From Thermoplasmatota archaeon (GTDB taxonomy: Archaea; Thermoplasmatota; E2; DHVEG-1): a stretch of 64,000 nucleotides of DNA. Below the pieces are notes generated by a model. It was not told where the DNA came from. It saw nothing but the letters and a program-made list of their open reading frames with translations, and did no database searches. Shown piece by piece: positions 27,316-48,803 of the stretch. The stretch spans positions 558-64,557 of the forward strand of contig JAWOGM010000054.1 in assembly GCA_046496795.1 (NCBI GenBank). Reading direction: 5' to 3'. Each line of letters opens with the position of its first letter. The first letter of the stretch is position 1. Position numbers and translations under genes: made by a program.

Positions 27316-29202
27316 ATGAAGAAACTTGTACCATTAATTATAGGTATTTTAGTCCTCAGTGGACTTGGAGCTGCCGTCGCACAAGAAAACACCCAAACAT
27401 TTGTTCTTTCTGATTCCATACATTTTTCAGAGCCAGCAATAATTCAAAATCGACACACAGTGGAAATTAATCTGGAAGAGGCAAATTCAGTTTTAATGGG
27501 TGAAGATAGTTATGATTTACCAATTATTTCAAAAGTGTATACCTTTCCTTTAGGAACATCCATAGATGAGGTCACAGTTTCCTTTTCTGATCCATATTTA
27601 TATACGCTTACATCAGACTTAAATCCTGCACCTATAGCACAATATATCTCAACACAATATCAATCAGAAAAAATATCCTATGAAACAGAGAATATAGACA
27701 TGTATCCACAATATCAATACACCTACAACACTGGAGCAGGACGCTTTAAAGGAGATCATGTTATAATTTTATCTGTTCAACTCAGCCCCATGCTTTATTT
27801 CCCTAATGAAAACATACTTTCCATTTCTGAAGAAGCCTCTATTGAGGTAACCTATACCCTTCCAAAAACACCAATTATCACTGGGGATGCATATGATATG
27901 CTAATTCTTGCACCTGACCATTTCAGTGCAGAATTACAACCTCTTATTGATTATAAAAATAGTAGAGGCATTGACACAGTATTAGTAACACTTAGTCAGA
28001 TTCCTACTCAGGGATCAGACGTACAAGAACAAATCAAATATTTTATAAAAAATGCCTATGAAGACTGGGGTTTTACCTATGTTTTATTGGTCGGAAGTGG
28101 AGTTGAAGGCCAAGAAGTATTTCCCGTACGCCATGTATGGATCCCCTCTGGAAGTTATGAAGCATATTTCCCAAGTGATTTGTATTATGCAGATTTTTAT
28201 AGATCAGATATGAGTTTTGCCAGTTGGGATCATAACAATAACGGAAAATATGGTGAAATTCCTCAAGATATTCCTGCTATGAACATCTATCCTGATGTGT
28301 ATCTGGGCAGACTCGCATGTAGTGATGAATTTGAAGTACGCAGTACCGTAAATAAAATAATCAATTATATGAAACATAACCAGGTCATGGAAAAAATTGT
28401 TCAAATCGCCGGTGATACATTCCCAGGAGATCCTCAAAACATTAACGAAGGAGAATATTCAAATATTGCCGTTATGAATCAACTTCCAGGTTATACCACA
28501 GAACGACTCTGGGCATCAACTAATACACTCACAAAAGTAAATATCATTAACGCAATAAATAAAGGTGTTGATTTCGTTGATTTCTCAGGACATGGAAGTT
28601 ATATGAGTTGGGCAACACATCCCCCAAATGATCCGTCCCGATGGCTTCCTGACGATGGGAAATACTCTGGATTTCTCAACATTAATGTGCCATTTCTGTT
28701 TAATAATAAAAAACTGCCTGTTGTATTTTTATTTGCATGTTCATGTCATAAATTTTCATCCTCTGAAAACTCTCTTGGGTGGGCATTTGTAGAAAATAGT
28801 TATGGTGGTGCAATAGCATCATATGGCGCATCAGGTATTGCATATGGAATGCTTGGTACAGCTATTAATGATCGTGTATTTGGATGGATGCAACTCAATA
28901 CCTTTAAAGGTCTTTACAATGACAAGGTATTAGGAGATGTATGGGGAGACTGCATTGTTGGATATTATAATGCTTTTAACTTTGATATCCAAGAGTCAGA
29001 TTATAAAACACTCTTGCAGTACAATCTATTCGGAGATCCTTCACTCGCTATTGAAACAGGTCCTGATCCGAAAAGCGCAGATGGATATCAGTTCCCTCTG
29101 CTTACTTTAATTCATCAAATCATTCAAAGAACATTAATGCGGTTTCCCTTTCTAGATCGATTGTTTACCCCTGCAATTCTCTCCAGATTACTAACACAAT
29201 AA
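27316..29202 (+). CDS. Secreted protein with a gingipain-like (peptidase C25, clan CD) domain and a conserved C-terminal tail
   Basis: Signal peptide 'MKKLVPLIIGILVLSGLGAAVA'. 'YVLLVGSG...VPVRHVW...SDLYYADF', a His region 'FSGHGSYMSW' and a Cys region 'FLFACSCHKF' parallel the gingipain His/Cys dyad. The tail '...RFPFLDRLFTPAILSRLLTQ' is shared with two other proteins. Confidence 0.5.
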   Translation: MKKLVPLIIGILVLSGLGAAVAQENTQTFVLSDSIHFSEPAIIQNRHTVEINLEEANSVLMGEDSYDLPIISKVYTFPLGTSIDEVTVSFSDPYLYTLTSDLNPAPIAQYISTQYQSEKISYETENIDMYPQYQYTYNTGAGRFKGDHVIILSVQLSPMLYFPNENILSISEEASIEVTYTLPKTPIITGDAYDMLILAPDHFSAELQPLIDYKNSRGIDTVLVTLSQIPTQGSDVQEQIKYFIKNAYEDWGFTYVLLVGSGVEGQEVFPVRHVWIPSGSYEAYFPSDLYYADFYRSDMSFASWDHNNNGKYGEIPQDIPAMNIYPDVYLGRLACSDEFEVRSTVNKIINYMKHNQVMEKIVQIAGDTFPGDPQNINEGEYSNIAVMNQLPGYTTERLWASTNTLTKVNIINAINKGVDFVDFSGHGSYMSWATHPPNDPSRWLPDDGKYSGFLNINVPFLFNNKKLPVVFLFACSCHKFSSSENSLGWAFVENSYGGAIASYGASGIAYGMLGTAINDRVFGWMQLNTFKGLYNDKVLGDVWGDCIVGYYNAFNFDIQESDYKTLLQYNLFGDPSLAIETGPDPKSADGYQFPLLTLIHQIIQRTLMRFPFLDRLFTPAILSRLLTQ

Positions 29203-33312: not shown

Positions 33313-33552
33313 ATGAAAAAAGGAATAACCATAGGATTTTCAATGCTGATACTTGCTATAATCCTCTGGATAGCATATGGATTATACATCGGCTTTGAAG
33401 AAATATTACAAGCCCTTGATATCATCACAGGACTCTTAACAGGATTGGTAGTGGTAGGAATTATTATATTATTTCTGTCAATCATTTTCGAACAACGTGA
33501 TGATACAAAAAAAATGAAACAAAAAATAAACAAGGAGGATTTAGAACCATGA
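33313..33552 (+). CDS. Small two-TM membrane protein
   Basis: Two hydrophobic helices and a charged C-terminus. Its stop overlaps the YbjQ start (ATGA). Confidence 0.4.
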   Translation: MKKGITIGFSMLILAIILWIAYGLYIGFEEILQALDIITGLLTGLVVVGIIILFLSIIFEQRDDTKKMKQKINKEDLEP

Positions 33553-33863
33553 TACTAACAACAACCGACTTTATAACAGGGAAAGAAATCAAAGAAATAT
33601 TAGGCCTTGTCAGAGGAAACACCATACAGGCAAAAAGCATTGGCAAAGATTTCAAAGCAGGACTACGCCACATTGCCGGTGGAGAAATAAAAGAATATAC
33701 AAGTATGCTTGCAGAATCACGAGAAATCGCCTTAAAAAGAATGGAAGAAAAAGCACAGAAAATCAATGCAGATGCCGTCATCAACATACGATTTATGACC
33801 TCATCAATTATGGGTGGAGCAGCAGAAATACTTGCCTATGGAACAGCAGTAAAACTAAAGTGA
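33549..33863 (+). CDS. YbjQ/UPF0145 (DUF74) family protein, copy A
   Basis: Whole-length resemblance to the UPF0145 family: 'ITGKEIKEILGLVRGNTIQAKSIGKDF...ADAVINIRF...GAAEILAYGTAVKL'. Confidence 0.8.
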   Translation: MILTTTDFITGKEIKEILGLVRGNTIQAKSIGKDFKAGLRHIAGGEIKEYTSMLAESREIALKRMEEKAQKINADAVINIRFMTSSIMGGAAEILAYGTAVKLK

Positions 33864-33967: not shown

Positions 33968-35053
33968 ATGAAAATCGAAAAAAAATTACGCTGCCCAAAT
34001 TGTAAAAAAGTATCCAAATTCTTAGGTAATCCTGGAGAGATACTAGAAATTACGTGCCCACATTGCAGCACAAAAGGAAAAATAGCGCTTGAAGACCCTC
34101 TGCTATCAACAAAAAATACTATAATTTCCGTAAAAAACATCTCAAAAAAATACAAAGATGTCCTAGCCGTACATAATGTTTCTTTTACTATAAACAAAGG
34201 AGAGATCTTTGGCTATATTGGACCAAATGGAGCGGGAAAGACCACGACTATAAAAATGATGATAGGGCTATTACATCAAACAAGCGGAGAGATATCTATC
34301 AATGGATTACAGATGCCAAAACAAAAAGAACAAGCACATCGGTTTATTGGCTATATGCCACAGTATGCAGGATTTCAACAGTGGCGAACAGTAAACCAGG
34401 CTCTCTTGACATTTGGGAAGTTATCAGGTGTGGAAAATAATGTGCTTCAACAACGCATTGATGAAGCGTTACATCTACTAGGTCTTATGAAATATAAAAA
34501 CAAAAAAATCTCAAAATTATCTGGAGGGACAATTCAAAAAGTTGGAATTGCTCAAGCATTACTTCACAATCCAAGTCTTTTAATTCTAGACGAACCCTTA
34601 AGTGGTCTTGATCCAGATAGTAGGTATCAAGTGAAAAAGATACTAAAACAATTAAGTAATAATGGAACAACAGTCTTTTTTTCCTCCCATATTTTGTCAG
34701 ATTTACAAGACATAGCATCAAAAATCTGTATTATTGATTGGGGGAAAATGATAAAAATCGGATCGTTAAACGATTTAAAAGTAGAATTTTCAAAGGAGAA
34801 TCAAATAGAAATTATATTTTCAAAAAAAACTGATGAATACAAGAACATACAAAAAATCACTGCAGTCAAAGAAATCATAGAAATTTCAAATGAAAGATAT
34901 ATCATACAACTTGACAAAAATGCAGATTCAGATGCCGTTACTAATGAAATAATTACAATGCTTATGGAAAATAACTGTATGATTAGAAGTATAACACCAG
35001 TAAGTCCTTCACTAGATGAAATGTATCAATATTATCTGAGAAAAGGAGGGTAA
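33968..35053 (+). CDS. ABC transporter ATP-binding protein with an N-terminal zinc-ribbon extension
   Basis: 'CPNCKK...CPHCSTKGK' zinc ribbon, then Walker A 'GPNGAGKTT', the 'LSGGTIQKV' signature, Walker B 'LILDEP', and a C-terminal extension. Confidence 0.8.
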   Translation: MKIEKKLRCPNCKKVSKFLGNPGEILEITCPHCSTKGKIALEDPLLSTKNTIISVKNISKKYKDVLAVHNVSFTINKGEIFGYIGPNGAGKTTTIKMMIGLLHQTSGEISINGLQMPKQKEQAHRFIGYMPQYAGFQQWRTVNQALLTFGKLSGVENNVLQQRIDEALHLLGLMKYKNKKISKLSGGTIQKVGIAQALLHNPSLLILDEPLSGLDPDSRYQVKKILKQLSNNGTTVFFSSHILSDLQDIASKICIIDWGKMIKIGSLNDLKVEFSKENQIEIIFSKKTDEYKNIQKITAVKEIIEISNERYIIQLDKNADSDAVTNEIITMLMENNCMIRSITPVSPSLDEMYQYYLRKGG

Positions 35054-35057
35054 ATCA

Positions 35058-35717
35058 ATGAGTTTTTCGTTAATATTAAAAGATGAGTTCAAAGGGTTTT
35101 ACAAATCAAAAGTTATGATATTTTTATGGACTGGACTACCACTATTAGCAGTCATCCTTCATCTATTTATAACTGATGATTCCATCCCAATGTCTACCAT
35201 CACCGCAATAGTTGTATCAAACATTGGTGGATTACTCGCTGCGGTAATGATAACAGTAAACATTATTAATGAAAAAGATACCAGAGTTTTTGACTTATTT
35301 TTAATAAGACCACTGAAACGCTGGCATCTCCTGCTCTCAAAATTTTTAGCGGTTTTTATCTGCGTATCAATAGCAGGTCTTCTCGCAGTAAGCGTTGGCA
35401 TAGGAGTTGATTTTTTTCAATCAGCCCTACCCTTTGAACAAATTCTTCGAAATGTCATTGATCCGTTCATCATGACCTTATCAATCATTGCAATATCTAG
35501 TGCTACAGGCATACTCTTTGGCGTGATAGCTCCATCAATTCTCGTTGGAGTAATACTAGTGATATTTATAGGAAATTACATATCCTCTATACCTTCAATT
35601 ATCCCTCTTGTACTTGAAATAAATAATCCTGTTAATTATGTGTTAGCAGTAGGACTACTCTGTACCATTGTTTTATTAGGTTTAGGAGTCTATTTATTTA
35701 ACAAAAAGGAGTTTTAA
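35058..35717 (+). CDS. ABC-2-type transporter permease (6 TM)
   Basis: Six hydrophobic helices. Immediately downstream of the ATPase; its stop overlaps the next start. Confidence 0.5.
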   Translation: MSFSLILKDEFKGFYKSKVMIFLWTGLPLLAVILHLFITDDSIPMSTITAIVVSNIGGLLAAVMITVNIINEKDTRVFDLFLIRPLKRWHLLLSKFLAVFICVSIAGLLAVSVGIGVDFFQSALPFEQILRNVIDPFIMTLSIIAISSATGILFGVIAPSILVGVILVIFIGNYISSIPSIIPLVLEINNPVNYVLAVGLLCTIVLLGLGVYLFNKKEF

Positions 35718-36006: not shown

Positions 36007-36321
36007 ATGATGGTAACAACAACAGAACAAATCCCTGGTAGAGATGTAAAAGAAGTATTAGGAGTCGTCTTTGGAAGTTGCGTACAAATGAAACATATCG
36101 GAAAAGACATACGAGCAGCAGGAAGAACACTCATTGGAGGAGAAGCTAAAGGATATACAGAACTCATGGAAGAATCACGCAGAACAGCAATGCAACGGAT
36201 GATAGATGATGCTAAAAAACTTGGTGCTGACGCTGTCATTGGTATGAGATATGCAACAGCACAAACCATGCATGGTGCCGCAGAGCTCATCGCATTTGGA
36301 ACAGCAGTGAAAACACACTAA
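36007..36321 (+). CDS. YbjQ/UPF0145 (DUF74) family protein, copy B
   Basis: Paralog of 33549..33863: 'IPGRDVKEVLGVVFGSCVQMKHIGKDI...ADAVIGMRY...GAAELIAFGTAVK'. Confidence 0.8.
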   Translation: MMVTTTEQIPGRDVKEVLGVVFGSCVQMKHIGKDIRAAGRTLIGGEAKGYTELMEESRRTAMQRMIDDAKKLGADAVIGMRYATAQTMHGAAELIAFGTAVKTH

Positions 36322-36336: not shown

Positions 36337-37047
36337 ATGCCAGTTGTTGAAGTAAAAAATCTTTTAAAAACATTTGGATCAACACAAGCAGTCAACAAAA
36401 TCTCATTTACCGTTAACAAAGGAGAAATCTTTGGCCTTATTGGACCAAACGGTGCCGGAAAAACAACAGCCTTACGAATCATTTCAACCCTTCTTCAAAT
36501 AACTTCAGGGGACGTAACTATTTTAGGATATGACGCGAAAAAAAAACCAGACCAAATCCGAAAAGTTATTAGCTACCTACCCGAGGATGCAGGAGCATAT
36601 AAAAATTTAACAGGAAGAACATATCTGCGGTTCATCGCCTGTTTTTTTGAAAAAAAACCAGAAGACATAATATCTAGAGGAATAACCATTGCAGATCTTG
36701 GCGACAGAATTGATGATAAAGTAGACACCTACAGTAAAGGAATGAAACGGCGATTATTAGTAGCTAGAGCATTAATGATACAACCAAAACTAGCAATTCT
36801 AGATGAACCGACATCAGGATTGGATGTCATAAACGCCCAAGAAATACGAAAAATAATAAAAAATACCGCAAAAAGCGGGGCTGCTGTTCTTCTTTCCTCT
36901 CACAATATGCTTGAAGTAGAATTCCTCTGCGATAGAATTGCACTTATCGCACAGGGAAGAATCGTTGAAGAAGGAGCGCCAAATAAACTCTTAGACCGTT
37001 ACAATGCAAATAACATTGAAGAAGTGTTTGTGAAGGCGGTTTCATGA
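36337..37047 (+). CDS. ABC transporter ATP-binding protein
   Basis: Walker A 'GPNGAGKTT', signature 'YSKGMKRRL', Walker B 'AILDEPTSGLD', H-loop 'SSHNM'. Confidence 0.85.
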   Translation: MPVVEVKNLLKTFGSTQAVNKISFTVNKGEIFGLIGPNGAGKTTALRIISTLLQITSGDVTILGYDAKKKPDQIRKVISYLPEDAGAYKNLTGRTYLRFIACFFEKKPEDIISRGITIADLGDRIDDKVDTYSKGMKRRLLVARALMIQPKLAILDEPTSGLDVINAQEIRKIIKNTAKSGAAVLLSSHNMLEVEFLCDRIALIAQGRIVEEGAPNKLLDRYNANNIEEVFVKAVS

Positions 37048-38327
37048 GCGCACTTACAAATATTTTTAAAAAAGAATTAAAAGAACTTTTAACACCTGCA
37101 GCAATATTACCCATAGTAGTACTTGCTATATTATTTGGCTCAATTGGTAGTTCAATGGAAGGAATTCAATCGGGACTTGAAGAAAAACCAATAATAGGAG
37201 TCATCAATGAAGATAGTGGTAATTTTTCTAAATTAGCAAATTCAATAATAAATAATCACTCCAGAGTCATTTATAACTCAACTGATAGTGCTGATAAACA
37301 ACAAGCCCTTGAACAAATAACAGCTGAGCAGGGATTGGCCTTACTTATTATTCCGCAAAATTTCTCTAAAAATATTTACAATAATACTCAAGGCCAAATC
37401 GATATCTATTGGATAATGAGAGGAGCAGGAATTTTTGATACCATATCCTCAGAAACAGTGCAAGCAATTATTTCAATAATTAACAGAGAAATATCAAGAT
37501 ATCTCATTGATCAAAATACAACAATTAACGCAAGTATTGTGTTATCGCCCACCGTTAAAACCGATACAACCTACTTTAAAGACAGAGTAATTCATCTCCC
37601 TCCAACAACAATTTCAGGGATGCTCTCATCGCAATCACTTCTTATCCCAATTGTGATTATGATGATCATAATAATGGCAGGAAGCATGGTCATCTCATCA
37701 ATGGCCTTGGAAAAAGAGAATAAAACACTTGAAACACTATTGACCCTACCCATAAAACGAACAAGTATTGTAACTGGAAAAATTGCTGCAAGTGCATTAA
37801 TAGGACTGTTATTTGCAGTGGTTTATATGATTGGGATGAGTCGATACTTTCAAGGAATGCAATTTTCAGATTCAATAAATCTTGCAGATTTTAATTTAGC
37901 GTTAACTTCGTCAGATTTTTTGTTAATAGGAATATCTCTTTTTATCACCCTGATCGCAGCGTTATCTCTTTGTATGCTTCTTGGAACCATGGCTAAAAAT
38001 TACAAAAGCGCACAAACACTAACATTTCCCATCACCATGCTTGCAATGATTCCCATGTTTATTACTATGTTTACTGATTTTGACACCTTACCCCTGGCTT
38101 TAAAAACCGTTATTTATGCAATACCGTTTTCTCATCCCATGATTGCCCCAAAAGCATTAATATTTAATGATTATAGCCTTGTAATTAGCGGAATTATCTA
38201 CGTATCACTATTTGCTCTTGTAACTATTTTTATCGTTGTATGGTTGTTTAAAACAGATAGAATACTTACCGGCAGTACAAAAAAAAATTGGAAAAATATA
38301 TTTACAAAAAGAACAAAAGAAGAGTAA
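37044..38327 (+). CDS. ABC-2 family exporter permease with a large extracytoplasmic loop
   Basis: N-terminal TM helix, a ~150-aa loop, then 5 TM helices. Start overlaps the ATPase stop. Confidence 0.6.
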   Translation: MSALTNIFKKELKELLTPAAILPIVVLAILFGSIGSSMEGIQSGLEEKPIIGVINEDSGNFSKLANSIINNHSRVIYNSTDSADKQQALEQITAEQGLALLIIPQNFSKNIYNNTQGQIDIYWIMRGAGIFDTISSETVQAIISIINREISRYLIDQNTTINASIVLSPTVKTDTTYFKDRVIHLPPTTISGMLSSQSLLIPIVIMMIIIMAGSMVISSMALEKENKTLETLLTLPIKRTSIVTGKIAASALIGLLFAVVYMIGMSRYFQGMQFSDSINLADFNLALTSSDFLLIGISLFITLIAALSLCMLLGTMAKNYKSAQTLTFPITMLAMIPMFITMFTDFDTLPLALKTVIYAIPFSHPMIAPKALIFNDYSLVISGIIYVSLFALVTIFIVVWLFKTDRILTGSTKKNWKNIFTKRTKEE

Positions 38328-38459: not shown

Positions 38460-39587
38460 ATGAAAAATATGTTAGTGAAGAGTTTACTCATTGCAATTGT
38501 GCTCTTATTACTTGGAGTGAGTATTCTTCCAACTATCAACGCAACAATAAATGAGGCTAGTGCTATAAACAAACAACCCCAACCACAGCTATTAGATATA
38601 TTTTGGGAAGAAAACTTCGATTCCTACGATCTTGGCAGCTCAATGCATGAGCAAGGTGGCTGGAAAGGCTGGGATAATAACCCTGCATGGACTGCCTATG
38701 TCACTGATGAGCAATCTCGCAGTAACCCACATTCAGTTGATATTGAAGGTGATGCAGATATTGTCCGTGAATTTTCAGGATTAACATCTGGACAGTGGAA
38801 CCTTACAGCATGGGTCTACGTACCATCAGACCTATTTGGATTATCGTATTTTATTTTACTCAGCGACTATACCGATGGAGCAGGTCAAGCAAATGAGTGG
38901 GCAGTTCAAGTACGATTTGATCCAGATCAAGGAATAGTTGAAGCTGAACATGGTGGCCCAAGTCTGCCATTGATAACTGATCAATGGGTTGAACTAAGTG
39001 TTCTTATAGATCTTGATGTCGACTGGTTTGAATTCTACTATAATGGCGACCTATTGGAAGAAAAAGCTTGGACTGCAGGTCCAAACAACGCAGGAACAGG
39101 AAAGCTTAACATCGGCGCAATAGACCTATTTGCAAACTCTGCAACAAGTGTTTTTTACGACGATATAACCTTAGAAGGAGAAGCAACAGAACCTTCTCTC
39201 ACATGCGAAGGAAGCCTGAGCTGGACTGATGTGGAACCTGGTGCTACTGTTACAGGAACCTTTACCATTGCAAATATTGGAGCCCCCGGATCTGATCTTA
39301 ACTGGGAGATACAAAACTTTCCAACCTGGGGAACTTGGACATTCACACCAAACAGTGGAACAGGCTTAAAGCCAGAAGATGGAGAACTCACCATTGAAGT
39401 GGAAGTTGTCGCTCCAATTGATAAAAATGAAAATTTCACAGGATCAGTAAGAGTCGTCAATAGTGATAATACCAATAACTATTGTGATATTGATGTAGCG
39501 CTTGCAACACCAGTAAGTTATTACAGGCCGCTACTGCAACGATTTATCAGCAGACATCCCATATTAGCACAACTCCTTGGATTGTAA
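38460..39587 (+). CDS. Secreted protein with a CARDB-like beta-sandwich and a conserved C-terminal tail '...HPILAQLLGL'
   Basis: Signal peptide 'MKNMLVKSLLIAIVLLLLGVSILP'. The C-terminal ~110 aa are paralogous to 40170..40700 ('WTDVEPGATVTGTFTIANIGAPGSDLNWEI...TGLKPEDGELTIEVEV'). Confidence 0.5.
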   Translation: MKNMLVKSLLIAIVLLLLGVSILPTINATINEASAINKQPQPQLLDIFWEENFDSYDLGSSMHEQGGWKGWDNNPAWTAYVTDEQSRSNPHSVDIEGDADIVREFSGLTSGQWNLTAWVYVPSDLFGLSYFILLSDYTDGAGQANEWAVQVRFDPDQGIVEAEHGGPSLPLITDQWVELSVLIDLDVDWFEFYYNGDLLEEKAWTAGPNNAGTGKLNIGAIDLFANSATSVFYDDITLEGEATEPSLTCEGSLSWTDVEPGATVTGTFTIANIGAPGSDLNWEIQNFPTWGTWTFTPNSGTGLKPEDGELTIEVEVVAPIDKNENFTGSVRVVNSDNTNNYCDIDVALATPVSYYRPLLQRFISRHPILAQLLGL

Positions 39588-39662: not shown

Positions 39663-39677
39663 TTACGGACGTGGCGG
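39663..39677 (+). repeat. attL: a 15-bp direct repeat TTACGGACGTGGCGG copying the 3' end of tRNA-Arg. A degenerate 26-bp extension matches at 21 of 26 positions.
   Basis: Identical to 48721-48735. It is GC-rich in an AT-rich background and sits in intergenic DNA. Confidence 0.6.
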
Positions 39678-39806
39678 CGTCTGAACCTATTTCCTCCTGT
39701 TAAAAAGTTCAATAATAACATAAAAATCGCACTTATAGATTTTTCAGCATCCCTCACTAAAATCTTTTTTCTTTCTTTTTTTGTCACATTTTTTTGAGGT
39801 GCTAAC

Positions 39807-40175
39807 ATGAAGCAGAAATCAATATACGATAACATGACTAAATCAGAAAAAATCGTTGCACAATTTTTGAAAGATCTTGGAATCTTTTGGTCATATGAAA
39901 AACCTATATATGTATGGGACAGAAATAAAAGACCGCGAGTTTGGACTCCCGATTTTTTCCTTAACCAGTTTAGTATCTATGTTGAGGTTTGCGGGTCAGA
40001 AGATTTTGATTATGAATATAGAAGAATAACGTACAAAGAGAATGGATATAATGTTATATTTTTACACCTGTATAAAGAGACAAATAGATGGAAAGAACAT
40101 TTTTTCCAGTATATTTCAAAAATATCAAATTATAGAAATGAGTGGTTAAACAGATTACGTATGAAATATTCATAA
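39807..40175 (+). CDS. DUF559 (Vsr-like endonuclease fold) domain protein
   Basis: 'NMTKSEKIVAQFLKDLGIFWSYEKPI...TPDFFLNQFSIYVEVCGSED...ENGYNVIFLHLYKE' parallels the DUF559 pattern (MTxAEkxLW...YIvDF...IEvDG...G..VlRf). Confidence 0.6.
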   Translation: MKQKSIYDNMTKSEKIVAQFLKDLGIFWSYEKPIYVWDRNKRPRVWTPDFFLNQFSIYVEVCGSEDFDYEYRRITYKENGYNVIFLHLYKETNRWKEHFFQYISKISNYRNEWLNRLRMKYS

Positions 40176-40700
40176 TCCGACTAGTTGTCTTAGTATCGGA
40201 AATACATTTGGAAACTGCTCTGAAATTAATAAAAGAAATTTATATATATTTATTTCAGTATTTTTCTGAATCTTTGTTGGAGTTATTAAGCTTAATTCAA
40301 AAATATGAAAATCTTCTGGATTATCACTATTAATAATTTTCACCTCTCCACCAAACTCTGTAAGATGTTCATATGGCGCATCGACCTCAACTACAACTGT
40401 CAATGTTTCATCCTCAGGTTTCAATCCAGTTCCATCATCAGGATCAAACCTCCATTCACCCCATTCAGGCCATGAATCTACTTCCCAATTAAGTTCAGAA
40501 TTCGGATCGCCGATGTTTTTCACAATAAAACTATCCTCGACTGTTGCACCAGGTATTACATCAACCCACCCTATCTCCCCATCGCAATCCAAATCAGGAA
40601 CAGGATCACCTATTATTTTATATGAATTACATAACGGCATAAAAACTAAAAACAACAATAATACTGCAACCATTAACGGAAATATTGATTTTCTAAGCAT
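40170..40700 (-). CDS. Secreted protein with a CARDB-like domain and the C-terminal tail '...FPILRQLVGL'. The true start is the internal Met at 40700, not the tracked 40928.
   Basis: The signal peptide 'MLRKSIFPLMVAVLLLFLVFMPLC' begins at residue 77 of the tracked ORF; the upstream 76 residues are AT-rich read-through. It is a paralog of the C-terminal half of 38460..39587. Confidence 0.5.
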   Translation of the reverse strand: MLRKSIFPLMVAVLLLFLVFMPLCNSYKIIGDPVPDLDCDGEIGWVDVIPGATVEDSFIVKNIGDPNSELNWEVDSWPEWGEWRFDPDDGTGLKPEDETLTVVVEVDAPYEHLTEFGGEVKIINSDNPEDFHIFELSLITPTKIQKNTEINIYKFLLLISEQFPNVFPILRQLVGL

Positions 40701-40881
40701 GTTCTTATTTCCCCTTATACATAAAGAATATAGAAAATGGTATTTATAAATTTCGCAAATTTTGTAAACAATTATTACATGAAAGACAAAATATTGAAAA
40801 AAAATAATAAATATTATAAACATTATGATTATCTCACTACAAGTAACATTGAATATAATTCGTAGGACGAAGGGAGAAAAC

Positions 40882-43800
40882 ATGAATAATTCTTGTTTAA
40901 ATAAATACCTAAAGGCTAGTATTCTCATAGGCAGCTTAATAATATTGATTTTTATGTTGAATTCAGCACAAGCAACAGAAATTGAAATGGATTTTTCATT
41001 TGAAGAACCTGATATAACCGAACTTACAATATCAGATGAAACATATCATGATGTTAAGATTGATGGTTTGAAAACAACAGGTGACACTGGTTTACCTTTG
41101 TTGCCGGTAAAAACAGTTAAAATTCTTCTACCACAAAGAGGAGTTTTGGAGTCGATAGATGTAGTTTTAGATGGTAATACATCAATGGGCCAGAATTATA
41201 ATGTTACACTTGGGAAAGAATCTGTTAATTTGTCTGGTGGGCAAAACGGGTCAAATGAGTCATATTTTAATGAATCAATACCATATCCAACGACTTCTTA
41301 TGATAAAATTGGTGTTTTTCATTTCAGGGGGCATTCCTTTTTGATAATTAATCTTCATCCATGTTATTACATTGGTGAAACCGGGGAGATATATTACTAT
41401 GAAAATATTTCTCTTACAGTAACAACAAATGAAGTGGGTAATGTTAGTAAATTTTTTAGAAATACAACAACTGATGAAGAATTGATAAAGGAGAAGGTAG
41501 ATAATTATGATTGTATATCCAGTTATGATACTAAGGTGGGTTTTTCAAAAAACTCAGATCTCGTTGATCCTCAAGATTCTTATGATTATGTCATTATAAC
41601 AAAAAAGAAGTTTAAAAATGCTATTTGTCCACAGGGTTTCAGATTCTGGTATACGTTTCAGGATTTAGCAGATTATAAAAATAGTACAGGTACACAAACA
41701 ATAGTTGTAGCTCTTGAGGACATTTTAAATGAACCTGAATATCATTGGGATGGTGAATTTGGCGATGGTTTAAATGAAAGTATTTTTAATGACACGCAAT
41801 GTCATATCAGAAATTTTATTAAGGATGCATTTCAAAATTGGGGTATTGAATACGTTCTTATTGGAGGAGATCATAATAATACTTTAACTGATTGTGATAT
41901 CGTTCCAGCAAGATTCTTTAAATATACAGAAATTCATATCTCAAAACCTTCTGACATTTATTATTCATGTCTTGACGGCAATTATAATATGGATTCTGAT
42001 GGAGATTTTGGAGAAAAGGGCGATGGAGGTTTTGGTAATGGAGATAACTGGGAGCCAAAATTAGGTTCTGGATATTGTTATGCAGAGGCAGATTCAAGCC
42101 AATATGGAGGTGGGTTTGATGTTGGCTTATTTTCAAAAGAATTAGATATGTCCAATTTTTCTAATGTGTATTTAAATTTTACATGGAGCTTCCGTTCTAA
42201 TTATAACGCCCATATAGAAGTTAATGTTTATTCCGGGGGAAATGATTCTGAAAACAAAGAAGTAACTCTGTGGGAAAAGAGTACTGGTTCTGAAATTCCT
42301 GATCCTATGGTATTGAATTTTAATCCTAGTATATATACTGATCCATCTGAAGTTTATATTGAATTTAATTATACAGATAGTGGTAGTTCCAGTTCAGATT
42401 CAATGAATATCGATGATATAAAAATAACCGGTTTTGATGGCACTAATTGGACGGTGATTTTAAATGAGAGTTTCGAAGGAGACCCTTTTCCTCCGGATGG
42501 TTGGGATCAAAAAAAATATAGTGGAGAAAAAGAATGGGCAATTGAATATTATCAAATCTATCCTGATTTATTTGCAGAAGTTTATATCGGGCGGGCAAGT
42601 GTTGGTAATAGGTTTGAAGTAAACAATTTTGTAACAAAAACACTATCTTATCAAAAAGCGGATGCTCATGATCCATATATTAATAAAACATTGTTACTTG
42701 GTGCAAGGTTAAATAAAAAAACTTGGGGTGGTGATTATAAGGATGAAATCGTAGATAAATGTGATAACGTCTTCAATTCGACAGGTATTCCAAGTGAAAA
42801 TTATACCATTGATAAATTATATGATCGTGATTTATCTCCTGATTATTGGCCTAAAAAGGAGCTAAGACGTAGACTTAATAATGGAGTTAATATAATAAAT
42901 TATATGGGTCATGGAGATTGGGATGGAATTGGTACAAAAGATTATGATGGTGACTTTTCATGGATAGATAAATTTAATATTGCAGATGTTTGTTTACTTC
43001 ATAATAATAAATATTTCTTTATGTATTCTATGGGTTGTTTAAATGGTAAATTTCATTGTTGGTCATCACTTCCTATATTCAATATTACACAATGTGACAG
43101 TTTTGCTGAGTTCCTTACTGTTAGAACAAAGCATGGTGCATATGCGACTATTATGAATACAGGCTCTGGAACATTTATTCCAAGCTCGACCAACTCTTCA
43201 TCCCAATATTTTGATAGGTTTTTTTTCAATGCAACATTTGGAGGTGCTGAAATAAAAGAATTAGGTAGAGCAAATCAGGAATCAAAAGAAAACACCTTAC
43301 CTCTAATATACGATTTAAATGTTTTTTATGGTTTAACTCTTTTTGGTGATCCTCAGATTTCTCTAAAAATTCCAGTTGAAAATAATCCCCCAAATAAACC
43401 TGATACACCGACAGGATATGAAGATCCTGATCATAAATTATTCTGGACTTATTATACTAGTACAACTGATCCAGAAGGAGATCAGCTTTATTATAAATGG
43501 GAATGGGATGATGTTGAAGGTTTGGTATGGTGGATTCCATTTTTACCTTATGATTCAGGTGATACTGCTAGTATGATACGTCCATGGTTAATTCCAGGGA
43601 CTCATAAAGTTAGAGTTAAAGCTATGGATATTTATGGTGCAGAAAGTAATTGGTCTGATCCTTATTACATGTCTGTATCATTTGATCTTAATATGCAAAT
43701 AAACCCTAATCCTGCTGTTGTTGGTGAGACAATTGATTTCAATGCAGAATCAGAATATGGTGAAACATATACCTGGGATTTTGGAGGAAGCAAAGGAATA

Positions 43801-46800
43801 AAATATGGTGCCCAAGTAACTGAAGATTATGATTCTGTCGGTGAATATGAGGTTATCCTAAATGTAACAGGTAGTGAAAACATTACATCAAATGCAACAG
43901 AATCTGTTGAAATTGTATTGTTACGATCTGAAATTGGTTGTTCATCCAATCATGCAGCACCAGACGAAACTATTTACTTTACAAACCTTTCAAAAGGATA
44001 TTATGAAATCAAGGAATGGGAATGGGAATTTGGTGATGGTAATGGATCAACAGATGAGAATCCAAACCACTCTTTTACATCTTCAGGTGTATATAATGTT
44101 ACCTTAAACGTAACAGATGATGAATATAATACAGATGAATTTACTGTGGTCATATATGTAGATACTGTACCCCCGGAAATATCAAATGTTTCCCATTCAT
44201 CTGAGATTATTGGCTATGGGACAAATATCACAATTTCTGCTCATGTCACAGATGATATAAGCGGCATTCAATTGGTTTGTGTCAATATCACCTGTCCTGA
44301 TGACAATAGTGAAAATTATACCATGAACCTTACAAATGATGATAATTACGAATGCACATTTACAAACACTTGGGATCTTGGCATATATAACTATACTATT
44401 TGGGCGATGGATAATGCAAACAACACCAATTCATCATCAGGGCATAGTTTCTCAGTTTCCAGATCGTTTGGTTATACAGAAATTGGGGCCTCAAATCAAA
44501 CCATATGGGATACAATAACTGGATCAACGTTTATGGTCAATGAAAAATGTGTTGCAGATAACCTAACAGTATATATTAACCCGGGTGATGCTACATATGA
44601 TTCACATTATCAGTGTATGATATATGATTATGATGACTCTGAGCTAGTTGGTATTTCTGATGAATTGAATGTTACCTCTGGAGAAGATTGGGTGGTATTT
44701 CCGTTTTCTGAGCCGAAACCTGTGATGATACTTGGGGTTAATTATACCTTGCAATGTTGGAGTGATAATGAAACATTAGCGATGTATTATGTCAATGGAA
44801 CTGGTTATGGTCAGGGGCAGTATTTTGAAGGAATATATGGATATGTTCCTGAAGATATATTGTTTGAATATGAAGATAGGAGATATTCAATTTATTGTAG
44901 CTATTCAAATGATACAATTCCACCAACTATCTCTGATGTAACTGATGACCCAAATACCTGTGGTTTTGGGCAGACAGTAAATATTACAGCAGAAATCAAC
45001 GGCACGATAAGCGGTGTTGATAATGCAACTGTAAATATCACATATCCAGATGAAACATTACATGTTTTTACAATGGACAATACTGAAAATGATATTTATC
45101 AATGCAGTTTCACAGCTACTTGGTTAGTTGACCAATATAACTATTCAATCTGGGCAATAGATGCCTATGGAAATCAAAATACCAGCACGGGTTATAGTTT
45201 TACTGTTTCTTCAAATGCAACAATTGGTGTTTGCACAATCAAGAATATTTATGGTGCCAATGAGTCTATTAATATAACTGATCCGCCCGTAGGTTCACCA
45301 TTTATTGGTTATGAATTACTAGATAATGACAGCGTTCTTCACATCTGGAACAAGTATGATAGTTATTATTTCAACACAAGCAGTGGGTTGCAGCTTACCA
45401 ATAATTATGATGAGTACTGGTCTCATAATGTGTTAATGCTAGGTTACTACAATAATGACCAATGGAATCTTATGTATCGTACTGATGAGCTCAGTGGATT
45501 TACAAAGAGTATTGATTCAGATAATGATACGTTTGTGAATGCTACACTCTGGAAGGATCTAACCTATGGTGGTTATGCCTTCCGACTGGCAATAAGATAT
45601 CATCTAGGTGTGGATGATAATGAGCTTACAATAATTCCGTACATTAAGAATATCGATGATGAAGATATTCCATATGTGTTGGGTTTTGGCTGGGAATTAC
45701 AGGATATTCAAATTGATATGACAGAGACAGGAGACTATATCCAACTGGGTAATGAAAATTATTATCTTAATCAAAGTCTTGATAACAGCTATACGAATCT
45801 TTCTGATCCTATCTATTGTTTCAATGAGGTGACTAATGAAACTGAGATCTGTGGTTATTCCGATCCAGCATTTTATCTCATGGAGAACATCACAGAGACA
45901 ACTACTGAATCATTGTATCTTCGTTGGGATAAAGATCTTACATATAAACTAGAGGTAAAGTCAAGAGCGGGGCAGTATAATGCGCCCGTAACCTTGTTTG
46001 TCAGAATTGGAACATTAAATAATGGTCAGGAGAAATCTACGGATATGTTTTGGTATGATGCTGATCAATATACTTATTATTTCGACAGCTATGATACAAA
46101 ACTCGATGCATGGGAAACAAATCCTAGTAACATGGTTGATGGAAGTACATCGACATTCGCAAGTACAGACATTAGGGATGATTCTGAATATTGTGATAGT
46201 ACATCATTTGGATATGGCGGTGCACCTTCAGGTACGGTCTCTAAAGTTGAGATAAGGGCATATGGTAAATATGAAGAAATTGGTGGCTCTATCAACATAA
46301 AACCAACTTTCAACGGTGGAAACGGTGATAATCATTACTTTTCCCTCCCCGGTTCAGCAGGTTGGTCATCCTGGTTTGATATTACAGATGATACCAATGC
46401 ACCTGAACCATGGACCTGGAGTGATGTTGAAAGTCTTGATTGCTCTATTATTGTATGTGATATCAGACAAGGGGATACATTTTATTGCCATAAAGTTGAG
46501 ATTCGTGTGACAAATAATGAAGCTCCTGTTGATAATAATCCAGCGCCTGCTGATGATAGTATTAATGTTTCAATATCTCCGACTTTGAGCATTAATGTCT
46601 CAGATGCTGAAGGTGATTCTATGAATATTACTTGGTATAGTAATAGCAGTGGTTCTTGGACGTCATTTGGAACTAATAACAGTGTAGGTAATGGTACATA
46701 TTACCAGTCGTTTAGTAATGCTTCTGTGAACGGTCAATGGTGGTACTGGAAGGTTAATGTTTCCGATGGCTCCAACACTTTAGAAAGCAGTGTCTATAAG

Positions 46801-47136
46801 TTCTATACTGGTGTTCAATCAAAGATCTTTAATACTGGTTCCACAAATATTTCTGGTTATTTGTTGATACAAGTTGAATTTTTTAGCGGAACTCAGTTAA
46901 TATGGGTGTTGGATAATGATACAATCAATGAAACCACTCCAAGGACAATAAATGTTGGTGAGCAACTTGCTTTAGATCTGATATTCAACGGTGAAATCAG
47001 TACTGATGATCTTACGCATGGTGATGGAACGTATCGTGTGTATGCAGCATTCCGTGATCCTGATGGCGACGTACTAATATGTGATGATGAAACTTTGCTT
47101 GCAGCTTGGTATGAGTTTGAGGTAGACACCAGCTAA
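40882..47136 (+). CDS. Giant (~2085 aa mature) secreted surface protein with a gingipain-like (C25) domain, PKD-like domains and an internal tandem Ig-like repeat. It is extremely rich in N-glycosylation sequons.
   Basis: The likely start at 40882 is preceded by AGGGAG. Signal peptide 'MNNSCLNKYLKASILIGSLIILIFMLNSAQA'. 'YVLIGGDHNN...VPARFFKY...SDIYYSCLDG', His 'YMGHGDWDG' and Cys 'YSMGCLNGKF' parallel 27316..29202. PKD-like 'YTWDFGGSKG' and 'EWEWEFGDGNGSTDENPNHSFTSSGVYNVTLNVTD'. Repeats 'PPEISNVSHS...HSFSVS' and 'PPTISDVTDD...YSFTVS'. Confidence 0.6.
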   Translation: MNNSCLNKYLKASILIGSLIILIFMLNSAQATEIEMDFSFEEPDITELTISDETYHDVKIDGLKTTGDTGLPLLPVKTVKILLPQRGVLESIDVVLDGNTSMGQNYNVTLGKESVNLSGGQNGSNESYFNESIPYPTTSYDKIGVFHFRGHSFLIINLHPCYYIGETGEIYYYENISLTVTTNEVGNVSKFFRNTTTDEELIKEKVDNYDCISSYDTKVGFSKNSDLVDPQDSYDYVIITKKKFKNAICPQGFRFWYTFQDLADYKNSTGTQTIVVALEDILNEPEYHWDGEFGDGLNESIFNDTQCHIRNFIKDAFQNWGIEYVLIGGDHNNTLTDCDIVPARFFKYTEIHISKPSDIYYSCLDGNYNMDSDGDFGEKGDGGFGNGDNWEPKLGSGYCYAEADSSQYGGGFDVGLFSKELDMSNFSNVYLNFTWSFRSNYNAHIEVNVYSGGNDSENKEVTLWEKSTGSEIPDPMVLNFNPSIYTDPSEVYIEFNYTDSGSSSSDSMNIDDIKITGFDGTNWTVILNESFEGDPFPPDGWDQKKYSGEKEWAIEYYQIYPDLFAEVYIGRASVGNRFEVNNFVTKTLSYQKADAHDPYINKTLLLGARLNKKTWGGDYKDEIVDKCDNVFNSTGIPSENYTIDKLYDRDLSPDYWPKKELRRRLNNGVNIINYMGHGDWDGIGTKDYDGDFSWIDKFNIADVCLLHNNKYFFMYSMGCLNGKFHCWSSLPIFNITQCDSFAEFLTVRTKHGAYATIMNTGSGTFIPSSTNSSSQYFDRFFFNATFGGAEIKELGRANQESKENTLPLIYDLNVFYGLTLFGDPQISLKIPVENNPPNKPDTPTGYEDPDHKLFWTYYTSTTDPEGDQLYYKWEWDDVEGLVWWIPFLPYDSGDTASMIRPWLIPGTHKVRVKAMDIYGAESNWSDPYYMSVSFDLNMQINPNPAVVGETIDFNAESEYGETYTWDFGGSKGIKYGAQVTEDYDSVGEYEVILNVTGSENITSNATESVEIVLLRSEIGCSSNHAAPDETIYFTNLSKGYYEIKEWEWEFGDGNGSTDENPNHSFTSSGVYNVTLNVTDDEYNTDEFTVVIYVDTVPPEISNVSHSSEIIGYGTNITISAHVTDDISGIQLVCVNITCPDDNSENYTMNLTNDDNYECTFTNTWDLGIYNYTIWAMDNANNTNSSSGHSFSVSRSFGYTEIGASNQTIWDTITGSTFMVNEKCVADNLTVYINPGDATYDSHYQCMIYDYDDSELVGISDELNVTSGEDWVVFPFSEPKPVMILGVNYTLQCWSDNETLAMYYVNGTGYGQGQYFEGIYGYVPEDILFEYEDRRYSIYCSYSNDTIPPTISDVTDDPNTCGFGQTVNITAEINGTISGVDNATVNITYPDETLHVFTMDNTENDIYQCSFTATWLVDQYNYSIWAIDAYGNQNTSTGYSFTVSSNATIGVCTIKNIYGANESINITDPPVGSPFIGYELLDNDSVLHIWNKYDSYYFNTSSGLQLTNNYDEYWSHNVLMLGYYNNDQWNLMYRTDELSGFTKSIDSDNDTFVNATLWKDLTYGGYAFRLAIRYHLGVDDNELTIIPYIKNIDDEDIPYVLGFGWELQDIQIDMTETGDYIQLGNENYYLNQSLDNSYTNLSDPIYCFNEVTNETEICGYSDPAFYLMENITETTTESLYLRWDKDLTYKLEVKSRAGQYNAPVTLFVRIGTLNNGQEKSTDMFWYDADQYTYYFDSYDTKLDAWETNPSNMVDGSTSTFASTDIRDDSEYCDSTSFGYGGAPSGTVSKVEIRAYGKYEEIGGSINIKPTFNGGNGDNHYFSLPGSAGWSSWFDITDDTNAPEPWTWSDVESLDCSIIVCDIRQGDTFYCHKVEIRVTNNEAPVDNNPAPADDSINVSISPTLSINVSDAEGDSMNITWYSNSSGSWTSFGTNNSVGNGTYYQSFSNASVNGQWWYWKVNVSDGSNTLESSVYKFYTGVQSKIFNTGSTNISGYLLIQVEFFSGTQLIWVLDNDTINETTPRTINVGEQLALDLIFNGEISTDDLTHGDGTYRVYAAFRDPDGDVLICDDETLLAAWYEFEVDTS

Positions 47137-47469: not shown

Positions 47470-48762
47470 TTGAAGATCATCCAAGAAAACCTAATTAACC
47501 ATTCAACCAATCCATTTACAACCAATTCACATGAATTGGAAGGAGGCAATAATCAAGAATGGAAACAAAATATAGAAAACATAGGCCAGAAATATGTCAA
47601 ACAACCAAATCCCCAATTGGACGGGGAGGAGATGAATGACCGTGGCTATGTAAGACAAAAATTTGATGTTGAAAAATTTAAAAACCCATATATCTTAGAT
47701 CCATCCGAATACAAAACACAACAGGAATTATTCAATGCAATAAAATACTGGTGGGTATTCAAAAGACGGAAAAATGAAAACACGGTAAAGAAACGAATAC
47801 CAATGGCAAAAAGAATGAGCAAACATCCAGTATTCCCAATTAATTGGAAGGAACTAAACCCTAATCAAATCATAGCATATCTAGAGTACAGAGAATACAA
47901 AGAAGGTGCTGGAAAGAACGCGATACGAAACGAATGGGACACACTCAACATGTTTGCAAAGGCATTTGGTATAAACACAGAAACATGGGGATACACACCG
48001 CCAAGTAAACCACCGGCAAAAGTCAAAATAATACCACTACCAAACACAACACACAGTATCATACATTACAGATACTCAAAAGACAAATACACAAATGCAC
48101 TCTTTCAGTACATACTAATGCACGGCTTTGTTATTGGATGGCGACCAAGTGAAATAGTAATCCAGAAAGTACGCGATGTAAACATCGATGATGGCTACAT
48201 GATCATAACTGAGACAAAGAAACACAATCAACTAAGACAGATATTTCCAGAAAAAGACTTAATGATCAATCCAAGACGAAAATGTTTGAAAAACTGGATT
48301 GACAAATGGAGACCCAAGGTCGAAAACCAATACAGTAAAGACTTTTTGTATCTGCAACCAAACGGTAAACCATACACAGTAGATTACTTACGAAAGAAAC
48401 TCTCACCTCTCGTAAAAGAGGCATGGAGACCTTTCAGCCTATACACAATGAGACACTGGTGTGCAACAGCAAGACTTATCAAAAGCAAGACAGAGACAAA
48501 GAAATGGGACATATGGGAAGTTAAAGATTGGATGGGGCATGACAAAATTGACACAACCGAAGATTACGTGAAATATGCGAAAAAATACCATCGAAACGCA
48601 CCGTATGATTGGATTAAGTCCGTCCTCAAATTTCATGACAATTTGGAAGTGGAAAATGGGCTAAAATCAATAAACGGCAAAAAAACCTACGTTTCGAGTG
48701 GAAACAACAGGAGTGGTGAGTTACGGACGTGGCGGGATTCGAACCCGCGATTACCGACTTAG
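47470..48762 (+). CDS. int: Tyrosine recombinase/integrase (pNOB8-type, not split by integration)
   Basis: C-terminal catalytic boxes 'MRHWCATARL' (HxxR) and 'DTTEDYVKYAKKY' (Tyr region). The last ~13 codons are translated from the tRNA-Arg gene. Confidence 0.75.
   Translation: MKIIQENLINHSTNPFTTNSHELEGGNNQEWKQNIENIGQKYVKQPNPQLDGEEMNDRGYVRQKFDVEKFKNPYILDPSEYKTQQELFNAIKYWWVFKRRKNENTVKKRIPMAKRMSKHPVFPINWKELNPNQIIAYLEYREYKEGAGKNAIRNEWDTLNMFAKAFGINTETWGYTPPSKPPAKVKIIPLPNTTHSIIHYRYSKDKYTNALFQYILMHGFVIGWRPSEIVIQKVRDVNIDDGYMIITETKKHNQLRQIFPEKDLMINPRRKCLKNWIDKWRPKVENQYSKDFLYLQPNGKPYTVDYLRKKLSPLVKEAWRPFSLYTMRHWCATARLIKSKTETKKWDIWEVKDWMGHDKIDTTEDYVKYAKKYHRNAPYDWIKSVLKFHDNLEVENGLKSINGKKTYVSSGNNRSGELRTWRDSNPRLPT
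48721..48735 (+). repeat. attR: the 15-bp direct repeat TTACGGACGTGGCGG, covering the tRNA-Arg 3' acceptor/T-arm end plus 3 nt of flank
   Basis: Identical to 39663-39677. Confidence 0.6.
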
Positions 48763-48798
48763 AAGGCCGGTGCCTTATCCAGGCTAGGCCACACGCCC
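48724..48798 (-). tRNA. tRNA-Arg (anticodon UCU)
   Basis: Manual fold: acceptor GGGCGUG/CACGUCC (one G-U), D stem GCCU/AGGC, anticodon stem CCGGC/GUCGG with loop CUUCUAA, T arm GCGGG-UUCGAAU-CCCGC, discriminator G. Confidence 0.85.
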
Positions 48799-48803
48799 AT
48801 AAA

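Follow-up and report, generated by a model that had tools for sequence, protein, structure and literature searches.

We analysed a 64,000-nucleotide stretch of DNA (the window; contig JAWOGM010000054.1 of assembly GCA_046496795.1) from a metagenome-assembled genome (MAG) that is labelled 'Thermoplasmatota archaeon' at NCBI. Three genes of the window, here called A, B and C, encode secreted proteins with a similar short C-terminal tail. Gene A (27316..29202, + strand) encodes a gingipain-like C25 cysteine peptidase of 628 aa with a signal peptide, a prodomain, a catalytic domain and the tail. Gene B (38460..39587, + strand) encodes a secreted protein of 375 aa with a weak Laminin_G_3-like region, an Ig-like domain (39192-39503, + strand, residues ~245-348) and the tail. 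Gene C (40170..40700, − strand) encodes a small secreted protein, 176 aa long when read from MLRKSIF, in which a signal peptide is followed by an Ig-like domain of the HYDIN/VesB PapD-like type (40287-40598, − strand, residues 35-138) and the tail. The signal peptides, recognised from sequence and hydrophobicity, are MKKLVPLIIGILVLSGLGAAVA in A (27316..27381, + strand), MKNMLVKSLLIAIVLLLLGVSILPTINA in B (38460..38543, + strand) and MLRKSIFPLMVAVLLLFLVFMPLCNS in C (40623..40700, − strand); the last contains a helix at residues 7-20 in the AlphaFold2 (AF2) model. The maximum 19-residue Kyte-Doolittle value within the first 40 residues was 2.5-2.8 in all three proteins, which agrees with an earlier note on this DNA that had assigned a signal peptide to each of them.

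The tail module of C (40173..40286, − strand, residues 139-176: ITPTKIQKNTEINIYKFLLLISEQFPNVFPILRQLVGL) is canonical and consists of a linker, a helix at 152-162, a PNVFP turn and a helix at 168-174. That of B (39504..39584, + strand, residues 349-375: ATPVSYYRPLLQRFISRHPILAQLLGL) is also canonical, with a degenerate turn in which ISRHP replaces FPNAFP. The C-terminal extension of A (29074..29199, + strand, residues 587-628: SADGYQFPLLTLIHQIIQRTLMRFPFLDRLFTPAILSRLLTQ) is a divergent, longer three-helix variant. We read the same C-termini as had been given before, ...LMRFPFLDRLFTPAILSRLLTQ for A, ...LLQRFISRHPILAQLLGL for B and ...ISEQFPNVFPILRQLVGL for C, and positions 40170-40241 correspond to the last 23 codons of C and its stop codon. 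Among the 224 stop-to-stop open reading frames (ORFs) of at least 60 aa in the window, the motif regular expression fits A, B and C only. A tail profile derived mainly from other genomes gave scores of 52.6 bits for C and 32.2 bits for B (E = 1.9e-8) in a set of 4,601 ORFs, and the tail of C reached 54.6 bits (E = 7.7e-10) when a tail profile was compared with 1.84 billion proteins.

The three proteins had been described as otherwise different, which is not so for B and C. Their last ~140 residues can be aligned with 45% identity (E = 9e-40), and these paralogues have the Ig-like domain in common besides the tail. A fold search showed that the Ig-like domain of C resembles HYDIN PapD-like and VesB Ig domains. 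B is a weak match to the NCBIfam 'choice-of-anchor D' model, and this type of preceding domain matches the 'choice-of-anchor D' and 'choice-of-anchor J' models as well as the VesB Ig domain. Domains of the 'choice-of-anchor' type precede other C-terminal sorting signals in bacteria. A word-indexed protein search with C as the query returned C itself as the sole match, and exact look-ups of A and C on contigs gave no record.

We investigated how widely the tail is distributed. The motif P-x2-F-P-I-L-x-Q-L-x-G-L-stop was back-translated into a degenerate DNA pattern, which matched only the tail of C in the window and gave 0 matches in 100 shuffles. In a set of 185,579 species, each represented by one genome, the pattern was found at 33 loci, where about 0.4 would be expected by chance according to our own estimate. 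All 33 loci belong to Thermoplasmatota, Thermoplasmatales or Thermoplasmata MAGs, or to UBA33 (whose record is labelled 'Euryarchaeota archaeon'), and SG8-52-3, a recognised Thermoprofundales (MBG-D) genome, is among the genomes matched. Up to 5 strict matches were found per MAG, at least 11 further tail genes adjoin them, and tail genes are often arranged in tandem. The ORFs at these loci, from 284 to >1,100 aa in length, have signal peptides and a uniform end, ...[TM]P[KR]x[KR]...LLxxLFERFPNAFPILRQLLGL. Viral contigs gave 0 matches to the DNA pattern.

A word-indexed search with the tail alignment returned only fragments of 34-77 aa, too short to reveal the range of carriers, and these fragments enabled a later profile search. 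The resulting tail-only profile of 34 positions (A3), searched against 1.84 billion representative proteins, gave 958 clusters (50% identity) at E ≤ 1e-3 and 44 at E ≤ 1e-10. The tail was the exact protein end in 101 of the 142 new top representatives and lay ≤3 residues from the end in 134 of them. Because the strict pattern fits only 8 of these 142 proteins, true tail counts should be much higher than the DNA-pattern counts. One of the profile matches, EMR74854.1, comes from SCGC AB-540-F20, a Thermoprofundales single-cell genome tabulated in PMC6461988. Cluster look-ups gave taxon names for a few proteins only, all of them Thermoplasmat*. The tail is confined to one archaeal clade with several copies per genome, and LFERFPNAFPILRQLLGL ends hundreds of unrelated secreted proteins of sediment-dwelling Thermoplasmatota.

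The proteins that carry the tail are diverse. Scans of 30 genome-derived carriers gave 35 Pfam families and scans of 92 representatives gave 54, so that the wider census proposed in the earlier note places the motif on >50 Pfam families and in 958 clusters, almost always at the extreme C-terminus. The commonest carrier domains are PKD, NosD/beta-helix, PQQ-type beta-propellers, Laminin_G_3 and FG-GAP, and CBM96, Kelch, cadherin-like, arylsulfotransferase and metallophosphoesterase domains were also found. The peptidases among the carriers belong to families C25, C1, C11, C13 and S8, the same families that have been reported for extracellular peptidases of this clade (PMC6461988, PMC9585477). 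Signal-peptide-like N-termini were detected in 62 of the 84 representatives that start with M. The tail follows several sequence contexts, among them the C25 catalytic-domain end and two last-domain endings that recur. This indicates that the tail is modular, though the last domain and the tail often move together, and the tail is conserved much better than the adjacent domains.

Some individual proteins depart from the usual arrangement. P0143, a metagenomic representative of 693 aa, has an internal tail at residues 423-447 and a second, C-terminal tail after a PKD domain. It is probably a fusion of two tail-bearing genes, and it recalls the internal PGF signal of a fused ArtA substrate in PMC6098224. 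In the window, a secreted C25 protein of 2,103 aa (40825-47136, + strand) adjoins C; it contains a C25 propeptide, PKD and Big_13, has no tail and ends in ...EFEVDTS. Thus, the tag is not used by every exported C25 protein of this genome. The ORF at 10372-11796 (− strand) ends in ...KAKDNLGAVSEWAELTVTMPKQNLALRINKFLGVRSVSLFHII, that is, with the usual end of a PKD domain and an 'MPK' site followed by a non-canonical ending. A frameshifted canonical tail was sought there and found in no frame, and no clear signal peptide was seen; the ending may be a tail that has decayed, or the ORF a pseudogene.

The module spans about 35 residues and consists, in this order, of a P-K-N-K-like site, a linker, helix 1, a turn and helix 2, which lies at the C-terminus. 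It often starts with P-[KR]-x-[KR], typically PKNK. This basic site occurs at a fixed upstream offset in 90 of 167 tails compared with 0.16% of background windows, an enrichment of ~300-fold. Helix 1 has the form φφxxφφ-E-R-F and is followed by the rigid turn P-N-A-F-P, and helix 2 (I-L-R-x-L-L-G-L) ends the protein as ILRQLLGL-COOH. Exactly 5 residues follow the conserved Arg (FPILR) in 110 of 139 tails, and the last residues are LLGL, LLGY or LLEL. The residues P, F, P, I, L, R and G are near-invariant, and conservation extends to positions that the DNA pattern did not constrain (R-6 in 33/33 and E-16 in 25/33). Many tails have an alternating F-N-F-N-F(N/P) stretch between the PKNK-like site and helix 1; this beta-strand-like pattern could serve strand addition to a partner. 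An N-glycosylation sequon at PKNK was rejected, since N-x-S/T was not consistently present on inspection.

A flexible linker joins the tail to the last folded domain, which is a PKD domain, a HYDIN/VesB-type Ig domain or the C25 catalytic domain. The AF2 model of C, calculated from an alignment with tail-covering fragments, contains a beta-sandwich, a low-confidence linker at 140-151 and then a helix-turn-helix; the helices at 152-162 and 168-174 and the PNVFP turn have a predicted local distance difference test (pLDDT) value of about 80. Phe, Trp and Leu are abundant in the tail, which also has a few Arg and Glu. Its maximum 19-residue Kyte-Doolittle value was 0.60 ± 0.23 on average and 1.43 at the highest, so that 0 of 172 tails reach 1.6, a value that 77% of the N-termini of the same proteins attain. 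There is no basic cluster at the extreme C-terminus of the tails. The helices have a hydrophobic moment of 0.45-0.53 and a mean hydrophobicity of 0.30-0.40 (moment against shuffled sequences, p = 0.05-0.3).

The codon usage of the tail was also investigated. Invariant residues are encoded by 3-5 synonymous codons, and over the last 14 codons the third-position identity is 53% while the amino acids are almost identical. This variation shows that selection acts on the peptide, and it rules out a recent duplication or a DNA-level repeat as the cause of the likeness. The tail codons of B and C themselves differ at many synonymous sites, so these two genes are not recent duplicates. The earlier note had considered that no other protein might end with the motif and that the similarity of B and C might come from a duplicated 3' end; neither is the case. 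Our results show that the tail is a clade-specific, strictly C-terminal, helical and portable module under purifying selection on exported proteins.

Protein A belongs to peptidase family C25. It matches Pfam Peptidase_C25 (PF01364) with 182.6 bits against a cutoff of 23 (E = 1.7e-53), and its AF2 model, based on 80 sequences, has a confident gingipain-like fold (pLDDT 89.3). The best Protein Data Bank matches of this model in Foldseek were the catalytic and pro domains of RgpB and Kgp (RgpB, E = 3e-19). H426 and C475, which are invariant in the family of A, align with H211 and C244 of RgpB, the catalytic His/Cys dyad, and the invariant E380 aligns with the S1 residue Asp163 of RgpB. The PorU model NF033707 gave only 57 bits against a cutoff of 420. 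A is a generic gingipain-like C25 enzyme, nearest to RgpB and Kgp.

The family of A is large (3,019 word-index matches), and 101 of 119 homologues continue for at least 25 residues past the GDP(S/T) end of the catalytic domain; about 15% have no C-terminal extension. Four homologues (P0013, P0014, P0016 and P0023) have the canonical tail at this position. The other endings are mostly variants of ...LERLIxRFPxLExLL..., and some are Q-rich or different; the orthologues P0038, P0053, P0066, P0079, P0024, P0034 and P0056, for example, have Gln-rich endings (…QQSQQQ…LLLKQMQGQQLQN) or …HPFLQPGGLRALLATM…QQIREQY. The tail of A itself is predicted by AF2 to form helices at 594-609, 611-616 and 619-627 (pLDDT 50-68), and the P[KR]x[KR] basic site is absent from A-type tails. 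The canonical tail profile gives no match to the tail of A, but profile-profile comparison of A-type and canonical tails with hhalign gave a probability of 92% (E = 5e-7). The earlier description of A as having a looser version of the tail can therefore be kept in part: profile-profile similarity and the four homologues support the relationship, but the tail of A is a distant variant and not a second copy. The A-type tail on this conserved 628-aa C25 peptidase appears to be a faster-evolving relative of the same module.

The surroundings of the tail genes contain possible signs of mobility. In the window, the 25 nt at 39663-39687 form a repeat of the 3' end of tRNA-Arg(tct) (48723-48799, − strand) with 21 of 25 identical bases and an exact core of 15 nt, and a tyrosine-integrase-like ORF (47470-48762) overlaps this tRNA gene. 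The ~9 kb between the repeat and the tRNA gene look like an integrated element, and the repeat alone is only modestly significant. The putative element holds an ORF at 39807-40175, tail protein C and the 2,103-aa tail-less C25/PKD protein, and B lies just outside. At the pattern-matched loci (L001-L033), the domains found most often beside tail genes are those of large serine recombinases; of the 141 neighbour ORFs, 8 have Recombinase PF07508 and 5 have Resolvase. This agrees with the report of gingipain genes on plasmid-like sequences in 27 Thermoprofundales genomes (PMC9585477), and tail-bearing genes may often lie on mobile islands.

Other genes of the window were also noted. The interval between A and B contains two pairs of ABC-type ATPase and permease genes (33968-35717 and 36337-38327), with two paralogous 104-aa ORFs upstream of them (33549-33863 and 36007-36321, + strand); no link to the tail was seen. 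The gene at 4988-6022 (− strand) is a strong match to the Pfam Volactin family of archaeal actin homologues (2e-118) and adjoins a gene for a DUF7139 protein.

The earlier note had proposed the tail as a candidate uncharacterised sorting or anchoring signal, and the range of carriers, the position, the export, the clade restriction and the selection on the peptide all speak for this proposal. From its architecture and distribution, we consider it rather probable, with moderate confidence, that the tail is a clade-specific modular C-terminal sorting or retention tag of Thermoprofundales-type Thermoplasmatota, which keeps proteins at the surface via a conserved partner. The tail-bearing protein would first be exported by Sec. 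The helix-turn-helix hairpin with its free hydrophobic C-terminus would then dock on a conserved partner on the cell's outer face, and this partner, either a receptor or a processing enzyme, would reside in the membrane or the surface layer. Such docking would keep hydrolases and binding proteins cell-associated, and the upstream basic site may permit later proteolytic release or transfer. A specific protein partner is favoured because the near-invariant residues and the fixed distance to the free C-terminus exceed what generic lipid binding would need. There is also a biological rationale for retention, since cell-associated hydrolases aid growth on polymers, as for AmyA (PMC5023256).

Several observations weigh against this interpretation. 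No archaeosortase, rhomboid or CPBP-type gene was found among the 25 families listed for the 141 neighbour ORFs. Only about half of the tails have the upstream basic site, A-type tails lack it, and the amphipathicity of the helices is modest and not above that of shuffled sequences. The tail and the last domain often travel jointly, as with PKD and tail in one genome, so that part of the spread reflects module duplication. The synteny around A is not kept in distant relatives, and a DUF3147-like membrane gene beside A is syntenic only in close relatives. The carriers come from uncultured organisms, and a surface location is suggested by architecture and distribution.

The same tail could be explained in other ways. 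It could be a self-sufficient interfacial membrane anchor like those of PBP5 and PBP6, with two short helices in the outer membrane interface and neither partner nor processing. The absence of any transmembrane (TM)-grade stretch (0/172 tails reach 1.6 in a 19-residue window), the Phe/Trp/Leu-rich composition with a few Arg and Glu, the predicted helices on a flexible linker and the lack of a partner gene among the neighbour families listed would all be accounted for. The moment of 0.45-0.53 and hydrophobicity of 0.30-0.40 are near the 0.43 and 0.38 calculated for a PBP5 tail sequence. However, lipid binding would not require near-invariant prolines, Arg and Gly or a fixed distance to the C-terminus, the moment is not significantly above shuffled controls, and the enriched P[KR]x[KR] site would be left unexplained. 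We regard a simple anchor as rather unlikely. The likeness could also have no functional meaning and come from common descent of gene ends that were duplicated, or from a DNA element conserved at the 3' ends of genes. B and C are indeed paralogous over about 140 residues, and the tail is often found together with the PKD or Ig domain ahead of it, but this is almost certainly not the explanation and is already refuted by the >50 Pfam families and 958 clusters, the heavy synonymous variation at invariant residues and the far better conservation of the tail than of the adjacent domains.

Two further explanations give the tail a protein partner of a particular kind. In one of them, the tail would be a cleaved sorting signal that holds the protein at the membrane until a gingipain-like C25 (or C13) enzyme of clan CD cuts at the PKNK-type site and attaches the protein to a lipid or glycan, by analogy with PorU in type IX secretion or GPI8 in glycosylphosphatidylinositol (GPI) anchoring. 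The candidate enzyme would be the tail-bearing 628-aa C25 family of A, which has an intact His/Cys dyad and in which E380, aligned with Asp163 of RgpB, is compatible with cleavage after Arg or Lys. The P[KR]x[KR] site is enriched ~300-fold at a fixed offset upstream of the helices, and the layout of site, spacer and hydrophobic end without basic residues resembles a GPI signal. PorU keeps its own C-terminal domain, and the absence of the basic site from A-type tails would parallel this. However, the cleavage is purely hypothetical, half of the tails have no basic site, A-family genes show no conserved linkage with tail genes, about 15% of A-family homologues lack any C-terminal extension, and the C25 enzymes of the clade are already explained as nutritional extracellular peptidases (PMC6461988, PMC9585477). 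We consider cleavage of this kind improbable. In its fullest form, the idea would imply an unknown archaeal surface-attachment pathway, in which the tail-bearing C25 enzyme recognises the tag, cleaves at the PKNK-type site and transfers the cargo to a lipid or glycan, as an independently evolved counterpart of PorU and GPI8 that organises the extracellular protein degradation of Thermoprofundales; the chance of this is slightly slimmer still. In the other explanation, the tail would bind a scaffold and build surface complexes in the manner of dockerin and cohesin, rather than act in membrane sorting. The many hydrolases and carbohydrate- or protein-binding domains among the carriers, the high conservation, which implies a protein partner, and the tandem clusters of tail genes are consistent with it. 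Neither the window nor 36 loci showed a scaffold with repeated receptor domains, and such docking is a special case of partner docking that the present data do not separate from a sorting or retention tag. As a distinct mechanism, we think it very unlikely.

A sorting or retention tag of this type would bear on the ecology of the clade. Thermoprofundales (MBG-D) are among the most abundant archaea of marine sediments, where extracellular C25, C11, C1 and C13 peptidases are thought to let them remineralise detrital protein (PMC6461988, PMC9585477). The tag would bear on how these uncultured archaea keep enzymes and hydrolysis products near the cell. As a portable element on hundreds of secreted proteins, it would offer a sequence-based definition of the surface proteome, and it would point to a sorting or retention machinery outside the current models of the archaeal surface (transmembrane anchors, lipobox and archaeosortase). 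The hidden Markov model of roughly 34 positions would be a handle for partial phylogenetic profiling toward the partner gene.

We compared the tail with known C-terminal signals. No model of Pfam-A or NCBIfam r20 matches it, either in full-length carriers or in isolated peptides at E ≤ 10, and no CTERM model is among the 25 families listed for 30 carriers. Literature searches gave no description of the tail, and its motif strings were found in no paper of the library searched; no such tail is mentioned in the Thermoprofundales papers (PMC6461988, PMC9585477) or in a review of archaeal surface biogenesis (PMC6098224). Archaeosortase and exosortase signals have a defining tripartite structure that includes a hydrophobic H domain (PMC6098224). 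Like these and sortase signals (PGF-CTERM, PEF-CTERM, PEP-CTERM and LPXTG), the tail is a short C-terminal tag on unrelated Sec-exported families, is lineage-restricted with many copies per genome, and is placed after the last folded domain. Unlike archaeosortase-type signals, it has no membrane-spanning segment and no terminal basic cluster, ends in LLGL-COOH at a fixed distance from the core, and is most conserved at the extreme C-terminus rather than in a motif ahead of a TM helix. An archaeosortase-type signal was rejected for lack of a TM segment (0/172) and of a basic end, in accordance with the earlier view that the tail is not like PGF-CTERM or PEF-CTERM, and no archaeosortase is among the 25 neighbour families listed from the 8-20 kb genome pieces around tail genes. 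The C-terminal motif of the Sulfolobus hydrolase AmyA mediates membrane association and aids growth on polymer (PMC5023256). AmyA is likewise an archaeal secreted hydrolase with a C-terminal motif, but its bipartite motif is a TM-type anchor of 18 hydrophobic residues plus charged ones, and the architecture of the tail differs.

The tail is similar to the C-terminal domain (CTD) of the type IX secretion system (T9SS) in that C25 peptidases are prominent carriers and the tail takes the place of the gingipain CTD; a C25-family enzyme with an atypical tail (A) also exists, as in the type IX system with its C25-family sortase PorU. However, the T9SS CTD is a beta-sandwich domain of roughly 70-100 residues that serves outer-membrane translocation in Bacteroidota, whereas the tail is archaeal and has 25-40 residues with 2-3 predicted short helices. 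Identity with the T9SS CTD was rejected for the wrong size and fold. A non-Sec C-terminal secretion signal was rejected as well, because the carriers have N-terminal signal peptides. In Escherichia coli PBP5 and PBP6, a C-terminal amphipathic helix holds the protein on the membrane. These DD-carboxypeptidase anchors resemble the tail in having a Sec-exported carrier, no TM segment, and similar helix hydrophobicity and moment. They are, however, restricted to one protein family and show little sequence conservation, whereas the tail is portable between families and combines near-invariant residues with two helices and a Pro-x-x-Phe-Pro turn.

The Ig-like domain ahead of the tail in B and C resembles that of Vibrio cholerae VesB, a GlyGly-CTERM/rhombosortase substrate in which the Ig domain directly precedes the sorting signal. 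Unlike GlyGly-CTERM, the tail has no Gly-Gly motif, TM helix or basic end, and no rhomboid gene is among the neighbour families listed. GPI signals consist of an omega site, a polar spacer and an uninterrupted hydrophobic end of 15-20 residues. About half of the tails also have a site-like motif and a spacer, but conserved Glu, Arg, Asn, Arg and Gln break up their terminal segment, which is not TM-grade. The tail seems to represent a prokaryotic C-terminal sorting or retention signal of a type not described before, and it would add a non-tripartite, helical type to these signals.

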